From: Escherichia coli
Lineage (GTDB): Bacteria; Pseudomonadota; Gammaproteobacteria; Enterobacterales; Enterobacteriaceae
Assembly (NCBI RefSeq): GCF_003991155.1
Contig: NZ_CP031293.1
Reading direction: 5' to 3' (one strand)
DNA length: 64,000 bases
The notes below the pieces were generated by a model that had not been told where the DNA came from, ran no database searches, and was given only the letters and a program-made list of their open reading frames with translations. Position 1 is the stretch's first letter. Each line of letters begins with the position of its first letter. Positions 5,344-48,663 of the stretch are shown piece by piece. The position numbers and the translations under genes are program-made.

Positions 5344-5486
5344 GACCGTTCCGTGCCCCTTCCTGATTCCCGACATAATGAATTGCCTCTGGCCAGTTTT
5401 TGTCGTCGCAAGGAGGCAAATGCGTAGCATCGGGGGACTTCGCCCGTACGCACCAGAGCATTCATGGCGTCAATTGAGAAGCGAAA

Positions 5487-5951
5487 ATGAACTTTCATCA
5501 GTACTATCCTGTCGACATCGTCAACGGCCCCGGCACTCGCTGCACCCTGTTTGTCTCCGGGTGTGTTCATGAATGCCCCGGTTGCTATAACAAAAGCACA
5601 TGGCGGGTAAATTCCGGTCAGCCATTTACCAAAGCAATGGAAGACCAGATCATTAACGATCTGAATGACACTCGTATCAAACGCCAGGGGATTTCCCTCT
5701 CCGGCGGCGATCCGCTGCATCCGCAAAACGTGCCGGATATTCTGAAACTGGTACAACGCATCCGCGCCGAGTGTCCGGGTAAAGACATCTGGGTGTGGAC
5801 AGGCTATAAACTCGACGAACTCAACGCTGCGCAAATGCAGGTTGTTGATTTGATTAACGTGCTGGTCGACGGCAAATTTATGCAGGATCTAAAAGACCCT
5901 TCCCTGATCTGGCGCGGCAGCAGCAATCAGGTGGTGCATCATTTACGTTAG
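5487..5951 (+). CDS. nrdG: Anaerobic ribonucleotide reductase activating protein (radical SAM), 154 aa
   Basis: Translation MNFHQYYPVDIVNGPGTRCTLFVSGCVHECPGCYN with Cys cluster; follows nrdD. Confidence 0.95.
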   Translation: MNFHQYYPVDIVNGPGTRCTLFVSGCVHECPGCYNKSTWRVNSGQPFTKAMEDQIINDLNDTRIKRQGISLSGGDPLHPQNVPDILKLVQRIRAECPGKDIWVWTGYKLDELNAAQMQVVDLINVLVDGKFMQDLKDPSLIWRGSSNQVVHHLR

Positions 5952-6242
5952 TCACTCATCCAGCCGTTTTGTCGCGTCTTCATAAACGGCTGAGTTTTCT
6001 CTCTTACCAATAGCTATCACCAACACGAGTAACTCTTTATCATTGACGGAATAGACCAGGCGATATCCCAGTGTGCGCAGCTTAATTTTGTAGCAGTCCG
6101 GTAAATCCCGCAGTTTAGCCGATGGATTGCGCGGCCTTTTCAGCACATCCTCAAGCTTTTTTTTAAATTGTTCCCGGACTGTCACGCCCAGTTTTTGCCA
6201 CTCTTTCAGCGCCCGCGGATCAAACGCCAGCTCATAGTTCAT
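5952..6242 (-). CDS. RelE/ParE-family type II toxin (mRNA interferase), about 96 aa
   Basis: Translation from MNYELAFDPRALKEWQKLG...LPDCYKIKLR..GYRLVY...GKRENSAVY closely parallels remembered K-12 RelE; start chosen by alignment to RelE (longer ORF start at 6320 rejected). Confidence 0.8.
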   Translation of the reverse strand: MNYELAFDPRALKEWQKLGVTVREQFKKKLEDVLKRPRNPSAKLRDLPDCYKIKLRTLGYRLVYSVNDKELLVLVIAIGKRENSAVYEDATKRLDE

Positions 6243-6474
6243 CCAGTCGGACCTTAATGGCCTCTTGTGGGTTGGCCAGTCGTTCCCTGACAGTGCGTAA
6301 CAAGGCTTCTTCACTATCACTGACAGTGAGCGTTTTTACCGGCATTCGTCCATTTTCCGCAACGTACTGAAACAGCAGCCGCACTGCTTCAGTAGGCGTA
6401 ATATTTAATTTTTCCAGCACCGCATAAGCCTCATTTTTCAGTTTGTCATCCAGGCGGACGTTAAGTGTGGCCAT
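6232..6474 (-). CDS. RelB/DinJ-family antitoxin (ribbon-helix-helix), 80 aa
   Basis: Translation MATLNVRLDDKLKNEAYAVLEKLNITPTEAVRLL...RLDEL parallels K-12 RelB; 3' end overlaps toxin start by 11 nt (typical coupling). Confidence 0.8.
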   Translation of the reverse strand: MATLNVRLDDKLKNEAYAVLEKLNITPTEAVRLLFQYVAENGRMPVKTLTVSDSEEALLRTVRERLANPQEAIKVRLDEL

Positions 6475-6497
6475 TATGCCTCCGGTAATTATGAAAA

Positions 6498-6533
6498 GTG
6501 TAATGCATTATAGCATTACATATGCATTACATT
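6498..6533. promoter_or_regulatory. Repeated palindromic motifs (TGTAATGCATTA / GCATTACA / TGCATTACATT) upstream of the antitoxin gene; candidate autoregulatory operator
   Basis: Read directly; TAATGCATTA is a perfect palindrome and TGCATTACA-like half-sites repeat three times. Confidence 0.5.
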
Positions 6534-6633
6534 CATTTCTGGAAAACGCCTCGCAAAAATGAGGACGACACGCAGGAATATGCCGTGGTGAAGATAGATA
6601 TTGCGGTGATTTTACGAAGGGAGAAGAAAGCGT

Positions 6634-33821: not shown

Positions 33822-35234
33822 TTATTTCCGCAGTTCAGCAGCCCGCTTCTTACCAATAAACAACCAGCCCAACCCCAGCGCGATAAACCACAGCGGGGTA
33901 ACCAGCAGCGCCTGGCGAGTGTCATCTTCCAGTGTCAGCAACACGACCACGAACACAAAGAACGCCATACATACCCAGCACATCAGCTTGCCGAGCGGCA
34001 TCTTATAGATCGACTTCTCATGCAGATGAGGACGCTGTTTGCGGTACACCAGGTACGAGCAAAGGATAATCGTCCAGACGAACATAAACAGAATCGCGGA
34101 AACGGTCGTGATCATCGTGAACGCGCCAATCACGCTGGGATTCACATACAGCATCACCACGCCGCCGAGCAGACAGATGCAGGAGAAGGTCAGCCCTTTC
34201 GCGGGTACTGCGCGCTTAGAGAGTTTAGCGAACGCTTTCGGTGCCACACCTTCCTGGGCCAGACCAAACAGCATACGGCTGGTAGAGAAGACACCGCTGT
34301 TAGCGGAAGAAGCGGCAGAGGTCAGCACCACAAAGTTAATCACGCTGGCGGCAGCAGGCAGACCCACCAACACGAACAGTTCAACAAACGGGCTTTTCTC
34401 CGGGACTACCGAACTCCACGGCGTCACGGACATAATCACAATCAGCGCGAAGACGTAGAACATAATGATACGGATCGGAATGGAGTTAATCGCGCGTGGC
34501 AGTGATTTCTCTGGATCTTTGGTTTCCGCAGCGGTGGTACCTACCAGCTCAATCCCTACGAAAGCGAAAACCGCTATCTGGAATCCGGCAAAGAAGCCAC
34601 TTAAACCTTTCGGGAACCAGCCGCCATCATTCCACAAATGCGCGAATGACGCTTCCACACCGGTCGGTGACTGAAAGTGCATCGCCACCATGACCAGGCC
34701 GACGACTATCAGCGACACAATGGCGACGATTTTGATCATCGCAAACCAGAACTCCATCTCACCGAACATTTTCACGGTGGCGAGGTTAAGCGTCAGCAGC
34801 AGCACTATCACCGCCAGCGAGGCGACCCAGTCGGAGAGATCGGGGAACCAGAACTGAGCATAAGCCGTGATCGCCACCACGTCTGCCATACCGGTTACAA
34901 CCCAGCAGAACCAGTAAGTCCAGCCGGTGAAATATCCTGCCCACGGCCCGAGTAAATCGGAAGCGAAGTCACTAAAAGATTTGTATTCCAGATTCGAAAG
35001 CAGCAATTCCCCCATTGCCCGCATCACGAAAAAGAGCATAAAACCGATGATCATATAAACGAAAATGATCGACGGCCCGGCAAGGCTAATCGTTTTGCCG
35101 GACCCCATAAACAACCCTGTACCAATGGCACCGCCAATGGCAATAAGCTGAATATGTCGGTTTGTGAGATTGCGCCGTAGCGACTGTTCAGCCGGAGCCT
35201 GATCATCGGCAACGACTTTTACCTGATCTACCAT
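33822..35234 (-). CDS. cycA: D-serine/D-alanine/glycine:H+ symporter (470 aa)
   Basis: Translation MVDQVKVVADDQAPAEQSLRRNLTNRHIQLIAIGGAIGTGLFMG... APC-family permease. Confidence 0.95.
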   Translation of the reverse strand: MVDQVKVVADDQAPAEQSLRRNLTNRHIQLIAIGGAIGTGLFMGSGKTISLAGPSIIFVYMIIGFMLFFVMRAMGELLLSNLEYKSFSDFASDLLGPWAGYFTGWTYWFCWVVTGMADVVAITAYAQFWFPDLSDWVASLAVIVLLLTLNLATVKMFGEMEFWFAMIKIVAIVSLIVVGLVMVAMHFQSPTGVEASFAHLWNDGGWFPKGLSGFFAGFQIAVFAFVGIELVGTTAAETKDPEKSLPRAINSIPIRIIMFYVFALIVIMSVTPWSSVVPEKSPFVELFVLVGLPAAASVINFVVLTSAASSANSGVFSTSRMLFGLAQEGVAPKAFAKLSKRAVPAKGLTFSCICLLGGVVMLYVNPSVIGAFTMITTVSAILFMFVWTIILCSYLVYRKQRPHLHEKSIYKMPLGKLMCWVCMAFFVFVVVLLTLEDDTRQALLVTPLWFIALGLGWLFIGKKRAAELRK

Positions 35235-35542
35235 GTTTTTTTCTTCCTGTACCTGTCTGTGTTGTTCAGGCTCTACGGCCTTTAGTCAGTCTATGATACG
35301 ACGAATCTGTATCGGGACTCATCGATATTAGGTAACAATACGCGGGATGAATACTAAGATTTAGATCTAATGTTAATTTTATGTTTAAAGTAAGTGTCAT
35401 ATCACGGTGATAACGCGAAACAGCTCACAAAAATACACGCTTACAGGGTCTTTGCAACATAAAATAGCGCCGTTTGGCAAACTGAAGGAGTTATTGCTGA
35501 ATGCCTGCTCCCCTCTGGTTCGAAGGGAACAGAATGCGCTGC

Positions 35543-36163
35543 TTAGAGGATTTCCAGCAGTTCGACTTCAAACACCAGGGTGCTGAACGGAGGGATGGAC
35601 GCGCCAGCGCCGCGCTCGCCATATGCCAGTTCCTGCGGGATAGTCAGTTCCCATTTAGAACCTACCGGCATCAGAGTCAGTGCTTCAATCCAGCCAGGGA
35701 TCACACCATTAACCGGGAATTCAGCTGGCTCGCCGCGAGCAACGGAGCTGTCAAACACGGTGCCGTCGATCAGTTTTCCGGTGTAATGAACACGAACGCG
35801 GTCGGTACGTGCCGGAATTGCGCCTTCGCCCTGGTTGATCACGCGGAATTGCAGGCCAGATTCGGTGCTATTTACACCTTCTTTTTTGGCGTTTTCTTCC
35901 AGGTATTTCACACCTTCAGCAGCCATCGCCTGGAAACGCTGACGACGAACGGCATCGGCGCGTTCGTGGATTTCACGCAGCGCGCGGTGCACCACATCAA
36001 CCGGAACAGCCGGATGTTTGCCTTCCAGCGCATCGGCAATGCCTGCAACCAGTGCTTCTGGCAGCAGCCCTTCCAGGCCAGATTCACTCAGTTGTTGCCC
36101 TACCTGCAAACCAATGCCGTAGCTTGCTTGCGCTTCGATGGTGTCAAAAGTTGGGGTGGTCAT
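35543..36163 (-). CDS. fklB: FKBP-type peptidyl-prolyl cis-trans isomerase (206 aa)
   Basis: Translation from [25 protein letters not shown]...; ATG at 36163 with AAAGGA RBS. Confidence 0.93.
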
Positions 36164-36380
36164 CGTATTTCCTTTCTTAGGGTATAAAGTAGCGGGCAGC
36201 ATATCAGCCACACTTCTTTGGGTAAAACTTTGTCGCGGGAATGATGACAAATCCCGGGGAAAAAGAAACAATAGCAATATCCCGTATGAATATAATAAAG
36301 GCGGGTTTACCACGGACATCATAGCGTTAGCTTATTCATAGGCTATGATTGAGGAACAAGACGCGGAGCAGGAGGAAACC

Positions 36381-37019
36381 ATGCCCGGGCGCTTTGAACT
36401 AAAACCAACCCTGGAGAAAGTCTGGCACGCGCCGGACAATTTTCGCTTCATGGACCCGCTGCCGCCGATGCATCGTCGGGGGATCATTATTGCCGCCATT
36501 GTATTGGTAGTCGGATTTCTGCTTCCATCTGATGATACGCCCAACGCGCCAGTGGTGACGCGTGAAGCGCAGTTAGATATTCAGTCGCAATCACAACCAC
36601 CGACAGAAGAACAGCTGCGGGCGCAATTAGTCACGCCACAAAATGATCCTGATCAGGTGGCTCCGGTCGCTCCAGAACCAATACAGGAAGGCCAGCCAGA
36701 AGAGCAGCCGCAAACCACCCATACGCAACCATTCCAGCCAGATAGCGGAATTGATAATCAATGGCGCTCCTATCGTGTCGAACCCGGTAAAACGATGGCG
36801 CAGCTGTTCCGCGACCACGGACTGCCCGCTACCGATGTCTATGCCATGGCGCAGGTAGAAGGCGCGGGTAAGCCGCTGAGTAATTTGCAAAACGGGCAGA
36901 TGGTGAAAATCCGCCAGAACGCCAGCGGCGTGGTGACGGGCTTAACCATTGATACGGGGAATAATCAACAGGTCCTGTTTACCCGCCAGCCGGATGGCAG
37001 TTTTATTCGTGCGCGGTAG
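36381..37019 (+). CDS. ytfB: OapA/LysM-domain cell-division protein YtfB (212 aa)
   Basis: Translation from [29 protein letters not shown]...; GGAGG RBS before ATG at 36381. Confidence 0.9.
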
Positions 37020-37650
37020 ATGAAGGGTCAACCAAAAGCCAGCTAAGGATTGTCTCTTTGATGACCTTACGTCTGGCTTCCAGTGCCTGGGGTGAAACCA
37101 TACTGATGTGATAAACCAGGCCAAGCGTATGCTGGTTGATCAAATAATATCCCCCAAGCGCAGCAATATTAATATTCACCTGCAATGGGTCGATATCTGG
37201 CTTAAAAATATTGTGTTTCTTCCCTTCATCCAATAAGGATTCCATTAACTGCAAGTGCGCATGGTTAATTTCTAAAAGACGCTGTGACTTTGCATAATGC
37301 ACACCCTTACTTTGATTTTCACTATGCACAATTTTTAAAAACCAGGGATTAGAAATATAATAATCCCATGTAAAATCGATTATTTTCTCAATGGCTTTCT
37401 GTGGCGGAAGATCTGAGAAATCAAGGGCCTTTTCTTTTTGTCGAATATCGTTCCAGGTATATTCCAGTACTTCGATAAATAAATTTTCTTTATTACCAAA
37501 GTGGTGATAAACCGTCTGTTTACTGCACCCTGCTGCCTTGACAATATTATCGACTCTGGCCCCTTCGTAACCATATTCGGCAAATTCATTAACCGCGCAT
37601 AACAGCAGCTTTTCTTTCAGGCTCTGTACGTTGCTGGTATCAAGATACAT
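37003..37650 (-). CDS. TetR-family transcriptional regulator (215 aa), divergent from accessory operon
   Basis: N-terminal HTH signature ...[34 protein letters not shown]...; 3' end overlaps ytfB 3' end by 17 bp; AT-rich codon usage by eye. Confidence 0.85.
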
Positions 37651-37684
37651 AACGCTTCCCCACGACCTCTTCGTGGTGACTATC

Positions 37685-37746
37685 ATAACCTGATTTGATT
37701 TCAGCTTCAGAAAAAAGGGCAAAAACTTGTACTTTCATCAGGTTAT
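37685..37746. promoter_or_regulatory. Inverted repeat ATAACCTGAT ... ATCAGGTTAT in divergent TetR/operon intergenic region
   Basis: Read directly; 10-bp arms about 42 bp apart. Confidence 0.4.
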
Positions 37747-37773
37747 CAAATGTCCTGTGATCGCCATCGCATA

Positions 37774-37793
37774 TCAACCAACTAGATGGTTGA
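37774..37793. promoter_or_regulatory. Perfect palindrome TCAACCA-ACTAGA-TGGTTGA; candidate TetR operator about 70 bp upstream of first operon gene
   Basis: Read directly; 7-bp arms, 6-bp spacer, located in promoter region. Confidence 0.5.
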
Positions 37794-37862
37794 TCTTTTT
37801 ATCATCCAGTCGCAAGCTAATCATCACCAAGGAAACAAAATTCAAAAAAAGAGAGCTATTGT

Positions 37863-38654
37863 ATGAAATCCACTCGTCCTGTTGCCGTGATTACCGGAGC
37901 CGCTCGTGGTATTGGAAAGGGCTGTGCGCTGGAGCTTGCGCGTGGCGGATTTAATCTGCTGATTAATGATCGTCCGGATGCGGATAGCGTAGAAAAATTA
38001 CATGCCACACAACAAGAATGTCTGGCGGAAGGCGTGGAAGTGATTTGCTTCCCTGCTGATGTGGGCGATCTCTCCCTTCATGAAGAGATGCTCGACGCGG
38101 CGCAAAACCAGTGGGGACGTCTGGACTGTCTACTCAACAACGCAGGCATTTCAGTGAAAAAACGCGGTGACCTCCTCGACCTCGAACCAGACAGCTTCGA
38201 TCAAAACATTGCCATTAACACCCGCGCGCCGTTCTTCCTTGCTCAGGCATTCAGTAAGCGCTTACTGGCACAGCCGAAACCGGAAGCAGAACTGCCGCAC
38301 CGCTCGATTATTTTTGTCAGTTCCATCAACGCCATCATGCTGGCGATGAATCGCGGCGAATATACCATTGCCAAAACTGCCGTCTCCGCCGCAGCTCGTC
38401 TGTTTGCCGCTCGCCTTTGCAATGAACAAATTGGCGTTTATGAAGTGCGCCCTGGTCTCATCAAAACTGATATGACTATTCCGGCAACGGCTTATTACGA
38501 CGAACTGATTGCCAAAGGTCTGGTGCCGTGGGGACGTTGGGGTTATCCGGCTGATATTGCTTCCACTGTCCGCGCGATGGCGGAAGGTAAACTGATTTAC
38601 ACCTGCGGTCAGGCGGTTGCCATCGACGGCGGCTTAAGTATGCCGCGCTTCTGA
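37863..38654 (+). CDS. Short-chain dehydrogenase/reductase (SDR), 263 aa
   Basis: TGAARGIG Rossmann motif, NNAG, catalytic YxxxK (YTIAK) in translation. Confidence 0.85.
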   Translation: MKSTRPVAVITGAARGIGKGCALELARGGFNLLINDRPDADSVEKLHATQQECLAEGVEVICFPADVGDLSLHEEMLDAAQNQWGRLDCLLNNAGISVKKRGDLLDLEPDSFDQNIAINTRAPFFLAQAFSKRLLAQPKPEAELPHRSIIFVSSINAIMLAMNRGEYTIAKTAVSAAARLFAARLCNEQIGVYEVRPGLIKTDMTIPATAYYDELIAKGLVPWGRWGYPADIASTVRAMAEGKLIYTCGQAVAIDGGLSMPRF

Positions 38655-38663
38655 GGCTGAATC

Positions 38664-39506
38664 ATGAGAGATCTGTTACAACGCCCGGATTTATTCAGTA
38701 TCAATACCGCAACACTGGGCTATAAAACGCCGCTACCCGCCATTATTGATGCCTGCGCCGCACGCGGTATTGGCGCAATTGCCCCCTGGCGCAGGGAGTT
38801 GCAGGGTGAAGATCTCCAGCAAATCGCCCGCCAGCTTGCTGCCAGTAACATAAACGTTTCCGGTTTGTGCCGTAGCACCTACTACACCGCACCGACGCTG
38901 GCGGAGCGCAAACTGGCGATTGACGATAACCGCCGGGCGCTGGACGACGCCGCTGTACTGAACGCTGCCTGTTATATGCAGGTGGTTGGCGGTCTGCCAA
39001 TGGGAACAAAAGATCTGTACGAAGCGCGGGAACAGGTGAAACAAGGGATTCGCCAGTTGCTGCCACATTCGAAAGATGTCGGTGTGCCAATTGCACTGGA
39101 GCCACTGCACCCGATGACTGCTGCCGATCGTTCTTGTCTGTGCACGTTACGTCAGGCGCTGGACTGGTGTGATGAACTCGATCCCGATGGCGAATTTGGC
39201 CTCGGCGTGGCGGTAGATGTCTACCATGTCTGGTGGGATCCGGATCTCGCCAGTCAGATCCTGCGTGCCGGAAAACGCATCCTCGCGTTTCATGTTTCCG
39301 ACTGGTTAGTGCCGACCACCGATCTGGTCAATGACCGTGGAATGCCGGGAGATGGTGTCATCAATATTCCGTCAATTCGTCGGCTGGTTGAAAACGCCGG
39401 ATTTAATGGCGCTATTGAACTGGAAATATTCTCACCGTATTGGTGGCAGCAAGATATTGACAGCACACTGGATATTAGCGTCGATCGCATCGCGCATTAT
39501 TGCTAA
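38664..39506 (+). CDS. Xylose-isomerase-like TIM-barrel protein (sugar-phosphate isomerase/epimerase or dehydratase family), 280 aa
   Basis: Family-level resemblance of the translation to IolE/hydroxypyruvate-isomerase-type TIM barrels; 10-nt gap from SDR with GAGG RBS. Confidence 0.65.
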   Translation: MRDLLQRPDLFSINTATLGYKTPLPAIIDACAARGIGAIAPWRRELQGEDLQQIARQLAASNINVSGLCRSTYYTAPTLAERKLAIDDNRRALDDAAVLNAACYMQVVGGLPMGTKDLYEAREQVKQGIRQLLPHSKDVGVPIALEPLHPMTAADRSCLCTLRQALDWCDELDPDGEFGLGVAVDVYHVWWDPDLASQILRAGKRILAFHVSDWLVPTTDLVNDRGMPGDGVINIPSIRRLVENAGFNGAIELEIFSPYWWQQDIDSTLDISVDRIAHYC

Positions 39507-39515
39507 GGAATAATC

Positions 39516-40292
39516 ATGAGTGACCAACCCGTTCTGTTCAGCAGAGCGGCGGCTTCTTGCCGCCTGACATTGAACCGTGAAGATAAATGTCATGCTATTA
39601 ATGAAGAAATGATCGAATCTCTCGACCATTATTTAAATGAAATTGAAAATGACACGGCATTACGCTTAGTCGAATTAACGGCAACCGGCGATAAATTCTT
39701 TTGTGCGGGCGGCGATATTAAATCGTGGTCGGCCTATTCGCCATTAGATATGGGCAGAAAATGGATTAAACGCGGTAACGAGGTTTTTAATCGCCTGCGC
39801 AATTTACCCCAATTAACGGTTGCAAATCTCAACGGTCATACCATTGGCGGTGGGATTGAACTCGCCTTGTGCTGCGATATTCGTATTGCCCGCCCCGGCG
39901 CGAAATTCTCTAACCCGGAAGTGATGCTCGGCATGGTGCCTGGCTGGATGGGCATTGAACGCGTGCTTAATCAGGTTGGCCCGGTGGTCGGTCGCCAGAT
40001 GCTGATGCTGGGTAAACGCCTGACGGCGCAGGAAGCTCAGGCGGCGAATTTAATTGATGAAGTGGTAGAAAAAGAACAGGTGGAAAGCTGGATGGCGAAT
40101 CAGTTAGCGCAGCTGGAAAAATGCGGTCCGGTGGCGCTCGCACATATCAAGCAACTGATTCTGGCACTGGAAAATAAACATGCTGATTACCCGCACCAGT
40201 TACTGGCTGGATTAATGTCCGCCACTCAGGATTGCCAGCAGGCGACGCGCGCCTTTGCCGAAAAAAGTAGCGTGAGCTTCCAAAATCAATAA
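39516..40292 (+). CDS. Crotonase-fold enzyme (enoyl-CoA hydratase/isomerase family), 258 aa
   Basis: FCAGGDIK and GHTIGGGIELALCCDIRIA oxyanion-hole motifs in translation. Confidence 0.85.
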   Translation: MSDQPVLFSRAAASCRLTLNREDKCHAINEEMIESLDHYLNEIENDTALRLVELTATGDKFFCAGGDIKSWSAYSPLDMGRKWIKRGNEVFNRLRNLPQLTVANLNGHTIGGGIELALCCDIRIARPGAKFSNPEVMLGMVPGWMGIERVLNQVGPVVGRQMLMLGKRLTAQEAQAANLIDEVVEKEQVESWMANQLAQLEKCGPVALAHIKQLILALENKHADYPHQLLAGLMSATQDCQQATRAFAEKSSVSFQNQ

Positions 40293-40301
40293 GGAAATTG
40301 T

Positions 40302-41843
40302 ATGCGTAAGATAACAACCACCGAGACACTGGCGGCGCAAATTCAGGACGGCGCAACCATTGCCATTAGCGGTAATGGCGGCGGAATGGTGGAAGCGGAC
40401 CATATTCTGGCTGCTATTGAAGCGCGTTTCCTGCAAACCGGACACCCGCGCGATCTGACATTAATCCACTCGCTGGGCATTGGCGATCGCGACTGCAAAG
40501 GCACTAACCGCTTCGCTCATGCAGATATGCTCAAACGCATCATTGCCGGGCACTTTACCTGGTCGCCCAAAATGCAGGCGCTGGTAAAAAATAACACGAT
40601 TGAAGCCTACTGCTTTCCTGGTGGCGTGATTCAGGCACTGCTACGGGAGATCGGCGCCGGACGTCCGGGGCTTTTTACCCACGTTGGGCTGGGATCGTTT
40701 GTTGATCCACGCAATGGCGGCGGTAAGTCGAATGAATGCACGACCGACGACCTGGTAGAACTGATTGAAATCGATGGTGAAACCAAACTTCGTTATCGCC
40801 CTTTCAAAGTGGATTACGCGATTTTGCGTGGCACTTATGCCGATCCACGAGGCAACGTCAGCCTCGAAGAAGAGGCGATTGATATGGATAGCTATTCGAT
40901 GGCGCTGGCAGCACACAACAGCGGCGGCAAAGTGTTCGTACAGGTACGCGATGTGCTGGAAGCTGGCGCGATTGAACCACGCCGGGTCAAATTACCGGGC
41001 ATTCTGGTTGATGGCATCGTTGAACACCGCGAACAACCGCAAACCTATCTTGGCGGTTACGACCTGACCATTAGCGGTCAACATCGCCGTCTGAGTTCTA
41101 ACGACGCTATTGAACTGGTTAGTCATCCAGTACGCCGCCTGATTGCCCGTCGGGCAGCACGCGAACTGGTGGCTGGCGCTTCAACCAACTTTGGCTTTGG
41201 TATTCCTGGCGGTATTCCAGGCGTAGCGCTGCGCGAAGGCGTTCCTTACCAAAGTTTATGGCTGAGCGTCGAGCAAGGTGTACATAACGGCATGATGCTG
41301 GATGATGCGTTCTTCGGCTGCGCCCGCAACGCCGACGCCATTATTCCATCACTCGATCAATTTGAGTTCTACAGTGGCGGAGGGATCGATATCACCTTCC
41401 TCGGCATGGGAGAGATGGATCAGTACGGTAACGTCAACGTCTCCCATCTCAATGGCAATCTGATTGGCCCCGGCGGATTTCTCGAAATTGCGCAAAACGC
41501 CCGTAAAGTGGTGTTCTGCGGCACGTTCGACGCCAAAGGTAGCAAGATCGATGTAACGCCAGATGGCTTGCATATCGCCCAGTCAGGTCAAATCCCTAAA
41601 CTGGTTACCCAGGTGGAAAAAATCACTTTTAGCGCCGCCTACGCACAGCAAAGCGGTCAGGAAGTGTTGTATATCACTGAACGTGCAGTATTCCAGTTAA
41701 CGGCAGAAGGCGTTGAATTAATTGAAATCGCACCGGGTGTGGAGATTGAGCGCGACATTCTGCCGTATATGGCTTTCCGTCCAATTATCAAGCACCCACG
41801 CCTGATGGAAAGTAGCCTGTTTACGCCGATGGAGGATGCATGA
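40302..41843 (+). CDS. Fused alpha/beta family I CoA-transferase (acyl-CoA:acetate/3-ketoacid CoA-transferase, YdiF-like), 513 aa
   Basis: Translation parallels remembered E. coli YdiF along its length (e.g. ITERAVF.L...G..LIEIAPGV..E.DIL near C-terminus). Confidence 0.8.
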   Translation: MRKITTTETLAAQIQDGATIAISGNGGGMVEADHILAAIEARFLQTGHPRDLTLIHSLGIGDRDCKGTNRFAHADMLKRIIAGHFTWSPKMQALVKNNTIEAYCFPGGVIQALLREIGAGRPGLFTHVGLGSFVDPRNGGGKSNECTTDDLVELIEIDGETKLRYRPFKVDYAILRGTYADPRGNVSLEEEAIDMDSYSMALAAHNSGGKVFVQVRDVLEAGAIEPRRVKLPGILVDGIVEHREQPQTYLGGYDLTISGQHRRLSSNDAIELVSHPVRRLIARRAARELVAGASTNFGFGIPGGIPGVALREGVPYQSLWLSVEQGVHNGMMLDDAFFGCARNADAIIPSLDQFEFYSGGGIDITFLGMGEMDQYGNVNVSHLNGNLIGPGGFLEIAQNARKVVFCGTFDAKGSKIDVTPDGLHIAQSGQIPKLVTQVEKITFSAAYAQQSGQEVLYITERAVFQLTAEGVELIEIAPGVEIERDILPYMAFRPIIKHPRLMESSLFTPMEDA

Positions 41844-43921
41844 GCCAGCTTGATGACACCCTCCTTGATGCGCTGACACACGTCACTTTCCCAAAGGGTT
41901 TTGTGTCAGCAGAGCCAGCGTCAATTGTCACGGTTGAAGATGTCGATTACCCGATCTGGCAAGTTGATGCGCTAGTCGTTGGTAGCGGCGCAGCAGGATT
42001 ACGTGCGGCAGTTGAACTTAAACGCCGCCAGCAAAATGTGCTGATCGCCACCGCCGGGTTATATATGGGGACATCGGCATGTTCTGGCTCTGATAAACAG
42101 ACGCTGTTTACCGCCGCTACCGCGGGCAACGGCGATAACTTCGCCAAACTGGCGGAAGCACTGGCGAGCGGTGGGGCGATGGATCATGACACCGCTTATG
42201 TCGAAGCGGTAGGTTCTCTGCACACTCTTGGCGGGTTGCAATATCTTGGTCTGGAATTACCGGAAGATCGCTATGGCGCGATTCTTCGTTATCAAACCGA
42301 CCATGACGAAGCCGGGCGTGCAACCTCGTGTGGGCCGCGTACCTCAAGGTTAATGGTGAAAGTGCTGTTGGAAGAAGTACAGCGCCTCGCCATTCCAGTG
42401 TTGACCAGTGCAACAGTGATTAAACTGCTGCATCAGCGTGACGAAAACGGCGAAGACCGTGTGGCGGGGGCAATCCTCGCGACCGGTCATCGCGCCCTTA
42501 ACCCATGGGGGCTGGCAATTGTGACTGCGCCCAATGTGGTACTGGCAACAGGAGGGCCTGGCGAGCTTTATCGCGACAGTGTGTACCCACACAAATGTTT
42601 TGGCTCGCTGGGGCTGGCGCTGGAGGAAGGCCTGACACTAACTAATCTGACCGAAAGCCAGTTTGGTATAGGCACGCCGCGCAGCACGTTTCCGTGGAAT
42701 TTGTCCGGCACCTATGTGCAGGTGATCCCATATATCTATTCCGTGGATGCTGAGGGTAACGAGTATAACTTCCTCGCGGATTACTATCGCACCACCCAGG
42801 AGCTGGCTTCAAACATCTTCCGTAAAGGCTATCAGTGGCCGTTCCACGCCACGCGGGTAATGGATTTTGGCTCCAGCTTGTTAGATATGGCGGTGGCGCA
42901 AGAGCAGCAATCAGGGCGTCAGGTATTTATGGATTTCAATCGTAATCCTGTAGCGGTGCCTGGTGATTTGCCCTTCTCATTAGATCGACTGGACGACGAC
43001 GTTCGCGCGTATCTGGAAAATAACGACGCTCTGGCACCATCGCCCATCGAACGACTGCAACGAATGAATCCGCTGTCTATCTCGCTGTATAAGATGCACG
43101 GTTACGATCTCACCACGCAGCCATTGCAGTTTGCCATGAATAATCAGCACATGAATGGCGGCATTGAAGTCGATATCTGGGGACAAACATCTCTGCCCGG
43201 TTGTTTTGCAGTGGGGGAAGTTGCTGGCACACACGGCGTCACCCGACCTGGCGGCGCGGCGTTGAATGCCGGGCAGGTTTTTGCTGTTCGTCTGGCGCGC
43301 TTTATTGGTTGCACGCAAAAGCGGAATATTGATGGAGATATTGCACAGCTGGCAGCTCCGGCACTGGCTTCTATAAGAGAGATCATTACTCAGGCGCACG
43401 ATAACGGGACCGGGATGCCGTTGTCGATTGTGAGAGAAAAAATTCAGGCACGAATGTCTGACTATGCGGGATTTATTTGCCATGCCGATAAAGTTCGACG
43501 TGCCACTCGTGATGCCCTGCTATTGAGTGAATTTGTCCAACAGCATGGATTGGCAATCAAACATGTGGGCGAAGTTGCCGAGCTGTTTATGTGGCGGCAT
43601 ATGGCACTGACTTCTGCCGCCGTATTAACGCAATTGACGCATTATATTGACGCAGGTGGTGGTAGCCGGGGAGCACGTATTATTCTCGACAGTGATGGAA
43701 ATTCTATTCCGCAAACACGAAATGGTTTTTGTGATGCCTGGCGCTTTCGTTCAGAGCGTACTGAGGATAAAAAAGATAAACTACTTATTCATTATTGCAA
43801 CGGTATCTTTCACGTCAGAGAAACACCTGTTCGTGAGTTTCCTATTATCCGAGGTATTTGGTTTGAAAAAAACTGGCCTGGTTTTCTTAATGGGACAATT
43901 TACCAGCCACAGGATGAATGA
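41840..43921 (+). CDS. FAD-dependent oxidoreductase of the fumarate reductase/succinate dehydrogenase/L-aspartate oxidase flavoprotein family with long C-terminal extension, 693 aa
   Basis: N-terminal DALVVGSGAAGLRAAVE dinucleotide fold, TGGPGELY, and C-terminal GGIEVD...GCFAVGEVAGT-HG..R.GG.AL motif; ATGA overlap with upstream gene and GGAGG RBS. Confidence 0.75.
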   Translation: MSQLDDTLLDALTHVTFPKGFVSAEPASIVTVEDVDYPIWQVDALVVGSGAAGLRAAVELKRRQQNVLIATAGLYMGTSACSGSDKQTLFTAATAGNGDNFAKLAEALASGGAMDHDTAYVEAVGSLHTLGGLQYLGLELPEDRYGAILRYQTDHDEAGRATSCGPRTSRLMVKVLLEEVQRLAIPVLTSATVIKLLHQRDENGEDRVAGAILATGHRALNPWGLAIVTAPNVVLATGGPGELYRDSVYPHKCFGSLGLALEEGLTLTNLTESQFGIGTPRSTFPWNLSGTYVQVIPYIYSVDAEGNEYNFLADYYRTTQELASNIFRKGYQWPFHATRVMDFGSSLLDMAVAQEQQSGRQVFMDFNRNPVAVPGDLPFSLDRLDDDVRAYLENNDALAPSPIERLQRMNPLSISLYKMHGYDLTTQPLQFAMNNQHMNGGIEVDIWGQTSLPGCFAVGEVAGTHGVTRPGGAALNAGQVFAVRLARFIGCTQKRNIDGDIAQLAAPALASIREIITQAHDNGTGMPLSIVREKIQARMSDYAGFICHADKVRRATRDALLLSEFVQQHGLAIKHVGEVAELFMWRHMALTSAAVLTQLTHYIDAGGGSRGARIILDSDGNSIPQTRNGFCDAWRFRSERTEDKKDKLLIHYCNGIFHVRETPVREFPIIRGIWFEKNWPGFLNGTIYQPQDE

Positions 43922-43941
43922 TATTGCAAAGGTTAATCACT

Positions 43942-44418
43942 ATGCGAAATATAATTAGATCTATTAATGCTCTACTTGCAGCATTGAACATTACCATTTT
44001 GGCGATCATCGTGGCATGTGTGACGTGGCAGGTGGCTGCACGATTTATATTTACTAGTCCCAGTATTTTTACAGATGAACTCAGCCGTTTGCTCTTTATT
44101 TGTCTTGGACTTTTTGGTGGGGCATACACCGCAGGGCAAAACCGGCATCTGGCGATTGACCTGATACCTATGATGCTGAAAGGAAAAGCCCGACGTCATT
44201 TATTTTTGTGTATTCAGATTATCGTTATTATCTTCGCTACCATCATTATGGTATATGGTGGTGGGCTATTAACGATGGATACATTCGATTCAGGTCAGAC
44301 CTCGCCCGCTTTAGGCTGGCAAATGGGATATATCTATATGAGCATCCCGATGAGTGGTGTACTTATTATTATATACACCATAGATATGGTTTTAACCGAA
44401 CTTAAACAACCACTCTAA
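43942..44418 (+). CDS. TRAP transporter small permease (DctQ family); alternative start 43918 overlapping upstream stop
   Basis: Short hydrophobic 4-TM-type translation MRNIIRSINALLAALNITILAIIVACVTWQ...; gene order Q-M-P. Confidence 0.8.
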   Translation: MRNIIRSINALLAALNITILAIIVACVTWQVAARFIFTSPSIFTDELSRLLFICLGLFGGAYTAGQNRHLAIDLIPMMLKGKARRHLFLCIQIIVIIFATIIMVYGGGLLTMDTFDSGQTSPALGWQMGYIYMSIPMSGVLIIIYTIDMVLTELKQPL

Positions 44419-44460
44419 AGATAACAAACAACAACCAACCATAGTAGGAATGGAGAAATT

Positions 44461-45762
44461 ATGGATTACTGGTTACCGATTATTGTGTTATTTGGTGCCT
44501 TCTTTTTTATGTTGGCATTAGGTGTACCTATTGTTTATGCCATTGGTTTATCGACACTGGCATCAATTTCCACACAACTCGATTTCAACTCAGCATTGAG
44601 TGTGGTTTCCCAAAAGTTAGCCTCCGGGTTAGATAGTTTTACGTTGTTGGCAATCCCATTTTTTATCTTGTCTGGCAACATTATGAATCATGGAGGAATA
44701 GCGCGACGATTAATCAACTTTGCCCGTATTCTCGGCGGTCGTCTGCCAGGCTCACTTGCCCACTGTAATATTCTCGCCAATATGCTGTTCGGGGCAATTT
44801 CTGGTTCAGCCGTGGCTTCGGCGGCTGCGATGGGCGGCGTCATGCATCCGCAACAGGTTAAAGAGGGCTACGACCCGGCATTCAGTACTGCGGTTAACGT
44901 TGCCTCTGCCCCGACGGGTTTGCTTATTCCACCAAGTAATACGTTAATCGTCTATTCACTGGTCAGTGGTGGTACTTCTATTGCCGCACTGTTTCTGGCG
45001 GGTTATGTTCCGGGAATTTTGCTGGGTCTGGCACTGATGGTAATAGCCGGTATTATCGCGGTACGTCGCGGTTATCCAAAGCCAGAACGCCCGACTTTAC
45101 GCCAGGCTGGCGTTGCGATATGGATGGCTATCCCCAGTATTTTCCTGATTATTTTAATTATGGGGGGTGTATTAAGTGGTATTTTTACCCCGACAGAGGC
45201 CTCCGCAATTGCAGTAATTTATACCCTTTTCCTTGCACTGGTTCTTTATCGTGAAATCTCAGTTAAAGATTTACCTAAAATATTTCTGGAATCCGTTATT
45301 ACCACTGCAATTGTCTTGTTATTAATTGGTTCTTCGATGGGAATGTCATGGGCGATGTCAAACGCTGACGTTCCCTTCCTGATTCTCGATTTGCTTAACA
45401 CTATTTCTGACAACCCAATAATAATCCTGCTTATTATCAATATTATCCTGTTGATTATCGGCACTTTTATGGATATGACACCGGCGGTACTGATTTTTAC
45501 GCCGATATTTTTACCGGTTGTCACCGAACTGGGCATGGACCCGATTCACTTTGGTATTGTCATGGTACTGAACATGTGTATCGGTATTTGTACTCCGCCT
45601 GTAGGCAGTGTGTTATTTGTCGGTTGTAGTGTATCTAAATTACCGATTAATAAAATTATCAAACCTATGCTGCCATTTTATGCCGTGATGGTATTGGTGC
45701 TGGCAATGGTGACCTATATTCCGCAAATCAGTATGGCATTGCCAAGAGCACTGGGTTACTGA
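44461..45762 (+). CDS. TRAP transporter large permease (DctM family), 433 aa
   Basis: Polytopic translation MDYWLPIIVLFGAFFFMLALGVPIVYAIGL... typical of DctM. Confidence 0.85.
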   Translation: MDYWLPIIVLFGAFFFMLALGVPIVYAIGLSTLASISTQLDFNSALSVVSQKLASGLDSFTLLAIPFFILSGNIMNHGGIARRLINFARILGGRLPGSLAHCNILANMLFGAISGSAVASAAAMGGVMHPQQVKEGYDPAFSTAVNVASAPTGLLIPPSNTLIVYSLVSGGTSIAALFLAGYVPGILLGLALMVIAGIIAVRRGYPKPERPTLRQAGVAIWMAIPSIFLIILIMGGVLSGIFTPTEASAIAVIYTLFLALVLYREISVKDLPKIFLESVITTAIVLLLIGSSMGMSWAMSNADVPFLILDLLNTISDNPIIILLIINIILLIIGTFMDMTPAVLIFTPIFLPVVTELGMDPIHFGIVMVLNMCIGICTPPVGSVLFVGCSVSKLPINKIIKPMLPFYAVMVLVLAMVTYIPQISMALPRALGY

Positions 45763-45814
45763 TGCGCATTCACTGGCGGCACCTGCCGCCATATTTATTA
45801 GAAAAGGAACATCT

Positions 45815-46786
45815 ATGAAAATAAAAGTATCCGCTGGCATTATCGGTGCTGTTCTTATGTTATCCGCAAGCCAGTCCTGGGCAGTGACATTAAAACTGAG
45901 TCATAATCAGGATAAGTCTCATCCTGTTCATAAAGCGATGGAGTTCTTTGCGAAAAAGAGCAAAGAGTACTCTAACGGTGATATTACTATTCGTATTTAT
46001 CCAAATGGAACATTGGGTACTCAACGAGAAACAATGGAGCTGATTCGTTCTGGCGCTATTCCACTGGTAAAAACCAACGCGGCAGAAATGGAAGCATTTG
46101 AAAATTCCTATAAATTATTTAGCCTGCCTTATTTGTTCCGCGATCGTGATCATTATTATCAGGTCATGCAGGGCGATATCGGGAGAAAAATCCTCGACTC
46201 AACGAAAAGCAAAGGTTATTTCGGGCTGACTTTTTATGATGGAGGCGCCCGCAGTTTCTACGGCAATAAACCAGTACTGAAACCAGACGATCTCAAAGGC
46301 ATGAAAGTCCGTGTCCAGCCAAGTCCTGGCGCAGTTGAAATGATCAAAGTCATGGGCGGTAACCCGACGCCACTGGATTACGGCGAGTTGTATACAGCCT
46401 TACAGCAGGGTGTGGTCGATATGGCAGAAAACAGCGTGATGGCGCTGACCACCATGCGTCACGGTGAAGTGGCAAAATCCTTCAGCCTTGACGAACACAC
46501 TATGGTTCCCGATGTGGTTCTGATGAGCAATGCTGCGTTTGATAAACTTAGCCCGGAAAATCAGGCAGTTATATTAAAAGCAGCTAAAGAATCAATGAGC
46601 TACATGAAAGACTTGTGGAGCGAGGAAGAGAAACAAGAATTTGCAAAACTGGATAAAATGGGCGTGAAAGTCTACCAGGTAGATAAAGCTCCGTTTATCG
46701 AGAAAGTACAGCCAATGTACGCAAACTTCGCTAAGGACAACCCAGCCCTTGCCCCAATGCTGGCTGATATTCAGGCAGCTAAGTAA
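45815..46786 (+). CDS. TRAP transporter periplasmic substrate-binding protein (DctP family), 323 aa
   Basis: Signal peptide MKIKVSAGIIGAVLMLSASQSWA then DctP-like SBP translation; AAAGGA RBS. Confidence 0.85.
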   Translation: MKIKVSAGIIGAVLMLSASQSWAVTLKLSHNQDKSHPVHKAMEFFAKKSKEYSNGDITIRIYPNGTLGTQRETMELIRSGAIPLVKTNAAEMEAFENSYKLFSLPYLFRDRDHYYQVMQGDIGRKILDSTKSKGYFGLTFYDGGARSFYGNKPVLKPDDLKGMKVRVQPSPGAVEMIKVMGGNPTPLDYGELYTALQQGVVDMAENSVMALTTMRHGEVAKSFSLDEHTMVPDVVLMSNAAFDKLSPENQAVILKAAKESMSYMKDLWSEEEKQEFAKLDKMGVKVYQVDKAPFIEKVQPMYANFAKDNPALAPMLADIQAAK

Positions 46787-46849
46787 TTATCTTCGTAGGG
46801 CTGCTTATTGTGGCCCTTATCGATATCTGCAAGTGCTCGCTACAAAAGC

Positions 46850-46877
46850 AAAACGCCGACCAATGGTCGGCGTTTTT
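46850..46877. terminator. Bidirectional rho-independent terminator (ACGCCGACC-AATG-GTCGGCGT flanked by A-run and T-run) between dctP-like gene and rplI
   Basis: Perfect 9-bp stem with flanking A/T tracts on both sides. Confidence 0.8.
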
Positions 46878-46897
46878 ACGTCTCGTTGAATAACGAA

Positions 46898-47359
<462 letters not shown>

Positions 47360-47388
47360 TCAAAGTCGTATTAATGGACCGTGACCGA

Positions 47389-47935
<547 letters not shown>

Positions 47936-47941
47936 CAGAAA

Positions 47942-48355
<414 letters not shown>

Positions 48356-48663
48356 TTATTCAGCCTCCTGTCTGGGTCAGCCGAATCCCGGGGAGGCAAG
48401 GAACGTGTTAAAGGTCGGCTGAAAAATGACGCGTTATAGTACTGACATACCCCGCTAAACTCAAGGGCAGAGCCGAAATAAATCTCCCCTTTCGCAAATA
48501 ACCTCTAAACCGCTGATTTGGAGTTCATCACACTTCATCATGGTGTTTTTTTGAACAACTGCATCAGAAATGGTCACCATCAACTTCTTTATCATTGATT
48601 AAAATTAAATCAGAAGATCATCACAGAGGAGAGCACACAAAGTCAGCCGTCGAGGAGGTATCT

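Follow-up and report, generated by a model that had tools for sequence, protein, structure and literature searches.

A probably TetR-regulated operon between ytfB and rplI in Escherichia coli and the remnants left by its probable internal deletion

Genes that lie between two core genes in some Escherichia coli strains and are missing from others may have been gained as an island or lost from an older locus. The question is raised by the interval between ytfB and rplI in a stretch of 64,000 nucleotides from E. coli (assembly GCF_003991155.1, contig NZ_CP031293.1), referred to here as the window. A preliminary description of this stretch depicted the interval as an island with its left junction at a convergent overlap of ytfB with a TetR gene and its right junction at a hairpin, and suggested gain by homologous recombination or lineage-specific deletion rather than site-specific integration. 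Both structures are real and the variation is of an ordinary kind: the "island" is an old operon that about 41% of the complete E. coli genomes, among them K-12, lost by an ancient internal deletion. We consider it very probable that the interval is an old locus with several forms, that the K-12-type deletion is shared and ancient, and that the alleles are exchanged by homologous recombination.

Gene content and boundaries of the ytfB-rplI interval

Positions 35500-38500 of the window are identical (100%) to the corresponding sequences of numerous E. coli chromosomes, that of strain 2016C-3878 included. The RefSeq gene order in 2016C-3878 is cycA, fklB, ytfB (plus strand), a TetR/AcrR gene (minus strand), an operon on the plus strand and rplI-rpsR-priB-rpsF (minus strand). 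The basic content of the locus is a probably TetR-regulated operon of five enzyme genes followed by a predicted transporter for organic anions, next to the core gene ytfB (Table 1).

Table 1. Positions of genes and other features of the ytfB-rplI interval in the window.
Feature	Position	Strand	Remarks
ytfB	36381-37019	+	OapA/LysM-like cell-division protein, 212 aa by RefSeq start; Pfam LysM_OapA 5.9e-35; RefSeq
Convergent 3' overlap of ytfB and the TetR gene	37003-37019		17 nt; present in operon-bearing and operon-lacking genomes
TetR/AcrR-family regulator gene	37003-37650	-	215 aa; TetR_N PF00440 2.3e-14, TetR_C_29 PF17938 5.7e-30; RefSeq
TetR part kept in deletion-type genomes	37003-37405	-	corresponds to K-12 pseudogene ytfA, ~98% identity
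GTGGCGGA, left copy of 8-bp microhomology	37401-37408	+	endpoint of 541-bp deletion in K-12-type genomes
Palindrome ATCAACCA-ACTAGA-TGGTTGAT	37773-37794		TetR/SDR divergent intergenic region; candidate TetR operator
SDR gene, operon gene 1	37863-38654	+	annotated 3-ketoacyl-ACP reductase; Pfam adh_short_C2 4.5e-42; NCBIfam NF009386
SDR segment, source of filler	37942-38058	+	decayed copy is the 103-nt filler in K-12-type genomes; starts with right copy of GTGGCGGA (37942-37949)
Xylose-isomerase-like TIM barrel gene (sugar-phosphate isomerase/epimerase-like)	38664-39506	+	Pfam, NCBIfam, RefSeq
Enoyl-CoA hydratase gene	39516-40292	+	Pfam, NCBIfam, RefSeq
Fused CoA transferase gene (acyl-CoA:acetate/3-ketoacid)	40302-41843	+	Pfam, NCBIfam, RefSeq
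FAD-dependent oxidoreductase gene	41840-43921	+	693 aa; Pfam, NCBIfam, RefSeq
TRAP-type transporter cassette	43400-46844	+	diverged oxidoreductase 3' end, dctQ, dctM, dctP, 58-nt tail
dctQ	43918-44418	+	PF04290 2.8e-29
dctM	44461-45762	+	PF06808 4.2e-119
dctP	45815-46786	+	PF03480 2.5e-83
Predicted terminator hairpin of the rpsF-priB-rpsR-rplI operon	46850-46876		bidirectional architecture; constant right boundary of the variable region
rplI	46898-47347	-	ribosomal protein L9, core gene; RefSeq

Both the N-terminal helix-turn-helix domain (TetR_N) and the C-terminal ligand domain were identified with Pfam in the TetR/AcrR protein, which is probably the repressor of the divergent operon. Its candidate operator is the palindrome in the spacer between the two transcription units, the core of which (CAACCAACyAGATGGTTGATC) is kept in Escherichia species and Klebsiella spallanzanii while the rest of the spacer is variable. 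The product of the first operon gene matches NCBIfam NF009386 with 420 bits (cutoff 250), and the TRAP transporter is a complete DctPQM-type set by Pfam, with the small (DctQ) and large (DctM) membrane proteins and a DctP-family binding protein encoded by adjacent genes. The GC content is below the E. coli average in the TetR gene (41%) and in the TRAP cassette (42-45%). Searches for relatives in the PDB retrieved none for the oxidoreductase at E <= 1e-10, solely uncharacterised "sugar isomerase" structures for the TIM-barrel protein, and TRAP binding proteins without assigned names as the closest structures for DctP; several of the binding proteins closest to DctP are presumably hexuronate-binding.

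The preliminary description had placed the ytfB stop inside the coding end of the TetR gene, with no terminator between them, and both statements hold. The TAG stop of ytfB is located at 37017-37019 and the TAA stop of the TetR frame at 37005-37003 on the minus strand, such that the last five codons and the stop of the TetR gene lie within ytfB. The RefSeq annotation of the identical sequence in 2016C-3878 agrees with the open reading frames (639 and 648 nt, 17 nt in common). No terminator-like hairpin was found at the overlap, and folding of the surrounding sequence was no better than for shuffled sequences on either strand (z-scores of -0.17 and +1.10). An Rfam scan of the region from 30 to 52 kb identified the RpsF leader alone, with no match at either junction. 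The overlap does not vary in length among the Escherichia loci examined, and K. spallanzanii has one of the same length; in Entomohabitans the two genes are separated by a gap of 15 nt and do not overlap. The C-terminus of YtfB is independent of the operon. It reads ...DGSFIRAR in E. coli, whether or not the operon is present, as well as in Citrobacter (...FIRAQ in Salmonella), which answers the question, raised in the preliminary description, of whether it differs in genomes that lack the segment.

At the other end, a strong bidirectional hairpin separates dctP from rplI, as had been proposed. It consists of the sequence AAAACGCCGACC-AAT-GGTCGGCGTTTT, which forms a stem of 12 pairs (7 of them G-C) and a loop of 3 nt, and it is preceded by an A-tract and followed by a T-tract, the tails being TTTTTACG on the plus strand and TTTTGCTTTT on the minus strand. 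None of 200 shuffled sequences folded as stably (z-scores of -4.9 and -4.4 for the plus and minus strand, respectively). The end coordinate given earlier, 46877, is one base into the T-tail.

We compared the right edges of the TRAP, MFS, MFS+yjfZ, MFS+hipBA, IS1, K-12, EDL933 and E1V33 haplotypes. All of these Escherichia haplotypes converge at ...AAAGC|AAAACGCCGACC, 4-8 nt before the foot of the hairpin, which bears out the placement of the right junction. Salmonella, Citrobacter, Klebsiella and Entomohabitans keep the hairpin and its GCTTTT tail downstream of rplI irrespective of the neighbouring gene, which makes the hairpin the predicted core terminator of the rpsF operon. It resembles known bidirectional intrinsic terminators in being a GC-rich perfect hairpin with an A-tract and a T-tract between convergent genes, here dctP and rplI. 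It differs in being a part of the core rplI operon that is kept whatever gene lies next to it, and its bidirectional function is predicted from sequence; in the window, it would end the convergent dctP transcript as well. The right edge of the variable region may be pinned at this position since the hairpin would terminate an essential ribosomal-protein operon, and rearrangements that intrude into it would be selected against. We infer that selection for an intact terminator, rather than recombination at the hairpin, sets the right boundary. The locus shows a variable region one edge of which stays fixed where an essential operon probably terminates. The TRAP cassette has no sharp edge on its left side, where identity to MFS-type alleles decays, falling to 91% from about position 43400 and to 67% from position 43701, in the final 200 bp of the oxidoreductase gene.

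Remnants of the operon in operon-less genomes

The left boundary is not where the preliminary description had set it. Operon-less genomes, including K-12, O157:H7 EDL933, IAI1 and Escherichia sp. E1V33, retain not only the overlap with ytfB but also the 3' 403 nt of the TetR gene. Alignment of the junction to such genomes, which had been proposed as a check, placed the left breakpoint at 37405/37406, inside the regulator gene and 386 bp past the ytfB stop. K-12 is collinear with positions 35001-37405 of the window at 98.1% identity, and homology restarts at 46845, 5 bases before the hairpin. In K-12 the space between these points is taken up by a filler of 103 nt, the upstream region of yjfZ and the yjfZ gene. 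The retained TetR segment is annotated in K-12 (NC_000913.3) as the pseudogene ytfA, which has the same 17-nt overlap with the 3' end of ytfB. K-12 ytfA (b4205) thus equals positions 37003-37405, the difference being that the window has the full-length gene together with its operon.

The filler is what is left of the SDR gene, a decayed piece in the order and orientation of the operon, with 76-84% identity to intact SDR genes. In E1V33 the breakpoint is exactly that of K-12 and the SDR remnant is the same, including a stop codon (AAA>TAA) in common with K-12; this genome is without the 844 bp that contain yjfZ. An origin of the filler from a paralogous SDR gene elsewhere in the genome was disfavoured, as the filler is collinear with the local gene, starts at GTGGCGGA and is common to E1V33. 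K-12 keeps both a TetR stump and a collinear SDR fragment, and therefore descends from an ancestor that carried the operon. The comparison with operon-less genomes thus turns a supposed gain into a loss, and a core gene that tightly abuts an accessory-looking one, with no terminator at the junction, is not the mark of an island edge. It also explains K-12 ytfA as the stump of the regulator of a 9-10-kb operon that is present in about 58% of the complete E. coli genomes.

The endpoints suggest how the operon was lost. The two copies of GTGGCGGA, in the TetR gene and in the SDR gene, are the exact endpoints of a first deletion of 541 bp; this 8-bp sequence occurs only three times in the 11.2 kb from 36301 to 47500. 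A second deletion of about 7.3 kb has one end in the SDR gene and the other in the sequence upstream of yjfZ, with an allele of the MFS+yjfZ type (e.g. that of CUVET21-1780) as the reference. It joins TCCCTGCTG to TCCCTGGTG and has 6-9 bp of microhomology at its endpoints, in TCCCTG(C/G)TG repeats. The deletion allele may accordingly be the product of two microhomology-mediated events, first between the copies of GTGGCGGA and then between those of TCCCTG(C/G)TG, which would have left the TetR stump (ytfA), the SDR remnant and the region upstream of yjfZ.

We infer that the mechanism was RecA-independent slippage at microhomologies. The direct repeats of 8 bp and 6-9 bp at the two pairs of endpoints are like those of known slipped-strand deletions; here, the event is ancient, the junction has mutated since and the mechanism is read from intact alleles. 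The present junctions in K-12 (GTGGCTGGCTAACC) and E1V33 (GTAGCTGGTTTAACC) differ at no fewer than three positions, i.e. >=3, from the predicted slippage product (GTGGCGGATTTAACC), so that later decay must be assumed. With this proviso the locus offers a clean example of microhomology-mediated deletion.

The repeats also bear on the statement that direct repeats, tRNA genes and integrases are absent. This was accurate for tRNA genes, integrases and att-type repeats, but it overlooked the 8-bp GTGGCGGA at 37401 and 37942. These copies are deletion microhomologies and not att sites, being located inside the operon rather than at its ends. The flanking repeats or integrase remnant that had been named as evidence against the earlier interpretation were looked for, and only these internal microhomologies came to light, which does not revive integration. 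No tRNA or tmRNA gene was detected with ARAGORN in positions 30000-52000. No integrase, recombinase or transposase was found with Pfam among the nine genes at 37003-46786, all of which encode regulators, enzymes or transporters, nor in the RefSeq annotation of 27 kb surrounding the locus, and no direct repeats pair the ends of the segment beyond chance-level matches of at most 20 nt.

Synteny and divergence in other species

We searched one genome per species (about 100,000 representatives) for homologues of the TetR regulator with a pattern-based scan, which may miss carriers, and found close homologues in only 7 of them. The operon, with the TetR gene, is located between ytfB and rplI in E. 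whittamii, K. spallanzanii and Entomohabitans teleogrylli, all with the MFS form, and with the TRAP form in SCPM-O-B-8794, which is titled E. coli and is a separate species representative. In E. albertii the operon is also at the ytfB locus, on a contig that ends inside it.

To quantify divergence levels, the window was compared with each operon-bearing genome at 4-fold degenerate sites, with cycA, fklB and ytfB, aligned over most of their length, as the flanks. Within Escherichia the divergence was 21-41% for the operon versus 22-31% for the flanks, and in comparison with Klebsiella and Entomohabitans it was 45-60% versus 48-54%. The silent divergence of the TRAP genes between the window and SCPM-O-B-8794 was 26-38%, similar to the flanks, which rules out a recent transfer of the cassette; given its lower GC content, the cassette may have had an earlier foreign origin. 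An MFS allele is common to E. coli and E. whittamii, with a silent divergence of 19%.

The same genes are thus found at the same position in distinct genera with a divergence like that of the flanks, as for an ancestral locus. From the synteny in three genera and the flank-like silent divergence it follows that the operon is ancestral and has been patchily lost rather than recently gained. The weakest link is that vertical descent of an operon found in only seven species representatives requires many independent losses.

The neighbourhood of rplI in other genera fits such differential loss. In Salmonella enterica, Citrobacter koseri and C. amalonaticus the interval from ytfB to rplI contains a single gene, for an EamA-family transporter (a context reached indirectly, via YtfB homologues). 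In K. spallanzanii and Entomohabitans the operon is present together with an EamA gene, which lies between the MFS gene and rplI, and no trace of the EamA gene was seen in the Escherichia locus. The simplest history would be an ancestral order of ytfB, TetR, operon, MFS, EamA and rplI followed by differential losses. The operon would then have been present between ytfB and rplI already in an early enterobacterial ancestor, with the TetR gene abutting or overlapping the 3' end of ytfB. The window carries the TRAP form; in other E. coli the transporter slot is occupied by an MFS gene, in some cases accompanied by yjfZ or a hipBA-like pair.

Allele forms in E. coli and rival accounts of their origin

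Allele classes were scored in 5426 complete E. coli genomes. The region spanning TetR and SDR is intact in 3143 (about 58%), and the full TRAP form of the window is present in 1449 (about 27%). A K-12-type junction was found in 2227 genomes (about 41%) with a 221-bp query at 90.6-100% identity. The TRAP form, the operon without TRAP genes and the deletion account for about 27%, 31% and 41%, respectively. Intact and deletion alleles together cover 5370 genomes, and the remainder includes variants mediated by IS elements, such as strain 2017.06.04CC in which ISKpn26 leaves just 47 nt of the TetR gene. Matches to the locus occur at a median of one place per genome (maximum 3), and only 3-4 of 5478-6621 places are on plasmids.

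Operon-bearing genomes without TRAP genes have a transporter of the D-galactonate-transporter MFS family in the slot. It occurs alone in MLI104K1, together with yjfZ in CUVET21-1780 and together with a hipBA-like pair in strain 536 (EC958 has the same match pattern); an IS1 replaces the MFS gene in HCP17S3_I4. The TetR remnant is split by IS609 in O157:H7 EDL933 and IAI1, and O104:H4 shows the same match pattern.

Among the E. coli deletion alleles, identity to K-12 is 86-99% in the filler, which is the most polymorphic part, and 96-99% in the TetR remnant. The remnant has probably been homogenised by recombination with intact alleles, the alternative being constraint downstream of ytfB. Recombination starting in the core flank would keep it close to intact alleles while the short, isolated filler drifted. 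Alleles probably spread between lineages by ordinary homologous recombination in the conserved flanks, namely fklB, ytfB and the TetR remnant to the left and the rplI operon to the right. The deletion allele appears to date back to the diversification of E. coli or earlier.

Presence, absence and the TRAP and MFS forms could also constitute a long-lived balanced polymorphism under niche-dependent selection on the use of an organic acid, and thus be more than what neutral loss has left behind. Each of the allele classes is common, the deletion allele also occurs in E1V33, with a filler that is 14-24% diverged, and the TRAP and MFS alleles are shared with SCPM-O-B-8794 and E. whittamii at the silent divergences given above. 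However, collections of complete genomes are heavily biased samples and recombination between species can equally yield allele sharing, and we regard this account as unlikely. The broader proposition that the TRAP, MFS and two-step deletion alleles have coexisted since before the Escherichia lineages split, by balancing selection or repeated exchange, is doubtful, though it deserves somewhat more credence. If true, the 103-nt SDR remnant would be a recombination-protected record of the age of the deletion allele, and selection or exchange would act on the use of an organic or sugar acid.

That a 9.8-kb island with edges at the overlap and the hairpin was gained by homologous recombination, as suggested in the preliminary description, is in our judgement very unlikely. 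The absence of the segment from K-12, its presence in a fraction of genomes that ranges from that of the TRAP form to that of any form, the lack of mobility genes, the right edge at the hairpin and the lower GC content of the TetR and TRAP parts would all agree with such a gain. It is contradicted by the TetR segment, overlap and SDR fragment in operon-less genomes, which point to an operon-bearing ancestor, as well as by the synteny in three genera with flank-like divergence and the overlap kept in K. spallanzanii. The other option raised there, a lineage-specific deletion, is supported by the same remnants: operon-less E. coli do not have an intact empty site but still contain 403 nt of TetR and 103 nt of SDR.

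It is least credible of all, to the point of being negligible, that the segment is or was an integrative island or composite transposon that has since lost its mobility functions, since the IS elements seen at the locus in some strains (IS609, IS1 in HCP17S3_I4 and ISKpn26 in 2017.06.04CC) are strain-specific insertions in already deleted haplotypes and thus secondary, and since, although small cassettes (yjfZ, hipBA) come and go beside the terminator, the segment in the window has no integrase, transposase, tRNA gene or terminal repeat and its synteny and divergence point to long residence. Site-specific integration was likewise rejected in view of the lack of tRNA genes, long flanking repeats and mobility genes. 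The operon is similar to classical genomic islands in being a multi-gene segment that is variably present among strains and partly atypical in GC content. It differs from them in the lack of tRNA, integrase and att sites, in the synteny across genera and in that absence is the derived state; none of the four defining features was found. It behaves like a region where genes are differentially lost and cassettes exchanged between conserved flanks.

Returning to the old locus with several forms, part of it was already known: ytfA is annotated as a pseudogene, and its presence varies among E. coli strains (PMC6790063). We found no paper describing the locus in detail in the literature on ytfA, yjfZ, ytfB and rplI, and none of the papers searched mentions the two deletions at microhomologies, the SDR remnant of 103 nt or the deletion allele that E1V33 and E. 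coli have in common. The exchange of TRAP for MFS transporters next to an uncharacterised set of CoA-dependent enzymes makes the operon a reasonable target for studies of pathway function. One of the genes beside the terminator, yjfZ, has reportedly been put forward as a qPCR marker for E. coli as a whole, but about half of the complete E. coli genomes lack it.

Alternating transporter cassettes

A single slot in the TetR-regulated operon between ytfB and rplI holds one of two alternating cassettes, encoding either a TRAP transporter (DctQMP), as in the window, or an MFS transporter of the D-galactonate-transporter family (Table). Since the two share this slot and both are old, they may well carry the same anionic substrate. 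The closest structures to DctP were 4ovr, 4x8r, 4n8y and 4n15, of which several bind hexuronates. In the divergent intergenic region between the TetR and SDR genes, a perfect palindrome stands in an otherwise variable spacer, and its core is retained across Escherichia spp. as well as K. spallanzanii; this palindrome is a likely candidate for the TetR operator.

Table. Positions of features in the window and at compared loci.
Feature	Locus	Position	Strand	Remark
Palindrome ATCAACCA-ACTAGA-TGGTTGAT	window	37773-37794		TetR/SDR intergenic region
Divergent 300-bp block	window	41901-42200		5' part of FAD-oxidoreductase gene
TRAP (DctQMP) cassette	window	43400-46844		
Second hairpin GGGCTGCTTATTGTGGCCC	window	46797-46817		directly 3' of dctP stop
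RpsF leader	window	48335-48419	-	Rfam RF02893, 110 bits; upstream of rpsF
MFS cassette	L003/L004/L005	9105-10520		
yjfZ	L003	10753-11547		MFS-bearing locus
HipA-family toxin and HTH regulator genes	L004	10626-12389		strain 536
IS609 (tnpA and TnpB/InsQ RNA-guided endonuclease gene)	L087	1855-3502		O157:H7 EDL933; likewise in L095, L096, L094
EamA/DMT transporter gene	L088/L089; L090; L011; L013	6686-7612; 6740-7669; 1354-2259; 416-1330		outside Escherichia

Mosaic divergence around and within the operon

The flanks of the deletion-type locus in Escherichia sp. E1V33 are strongly mosaic relative to the window. Divergence at 4-fold sites amounted to 9% in cycA, 18.5% in fklB and 32% in ytfB, and to only 1-3% on the rplI side. 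This mosaicism indicates recombination between lineages around the ytfB-rplI locus. Within the operon, the block in the FAD-oxidoreductase gene showed only 82-86% identity to every other allele examined, including those of other E. coli, and the neighbouring blocks 96-99% in the same comparison; local introgression or a hypervariable segment may be its source.

Accessory genes and insertions

For the monitoring of water by qPCR, yjfZ has been put forward as a signature gene conserved in E. coli/Shigella (PMC11057252). Coverage of at least 80% of a 1141-nt yjfZ query was reached in just 2513 of the 5426 complete E. coli genomes, and a search across the whole window did not find the gene, which the window strain lacks. 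Roughly half of E. coli lineages would escape a yjfZ assay.

The IS609 copy of EDL933 interrupts the TetR remnant at a point corresponding to about 37109/37110 in the window. IAI1 and several further genomes of the deletion type share this insertion, and O104:H4 gave the same match pattern as these genomes.

Immediately past the dctP stop, the TRAP haplotype alone carries a second hairpin, smaller than that of the rplI terminator and also present in the TRAP-bearing genome SCPM-O-B-8794. In strain 536, the interval from the MFS gene to the terminator holds an insertion with a frameshifted HipA-family toxin gene and a gene for an HTH regulator, and EC958 gave the same match pattern. An EamA/DMT transporter gene adjoins rplI in Salmonella, Citrobacter, K. 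spallanzanii and Entomohabitans, and is entirely absent from all Escherichia loci examined. The RpsF leader is as expected for the rpsF operon.
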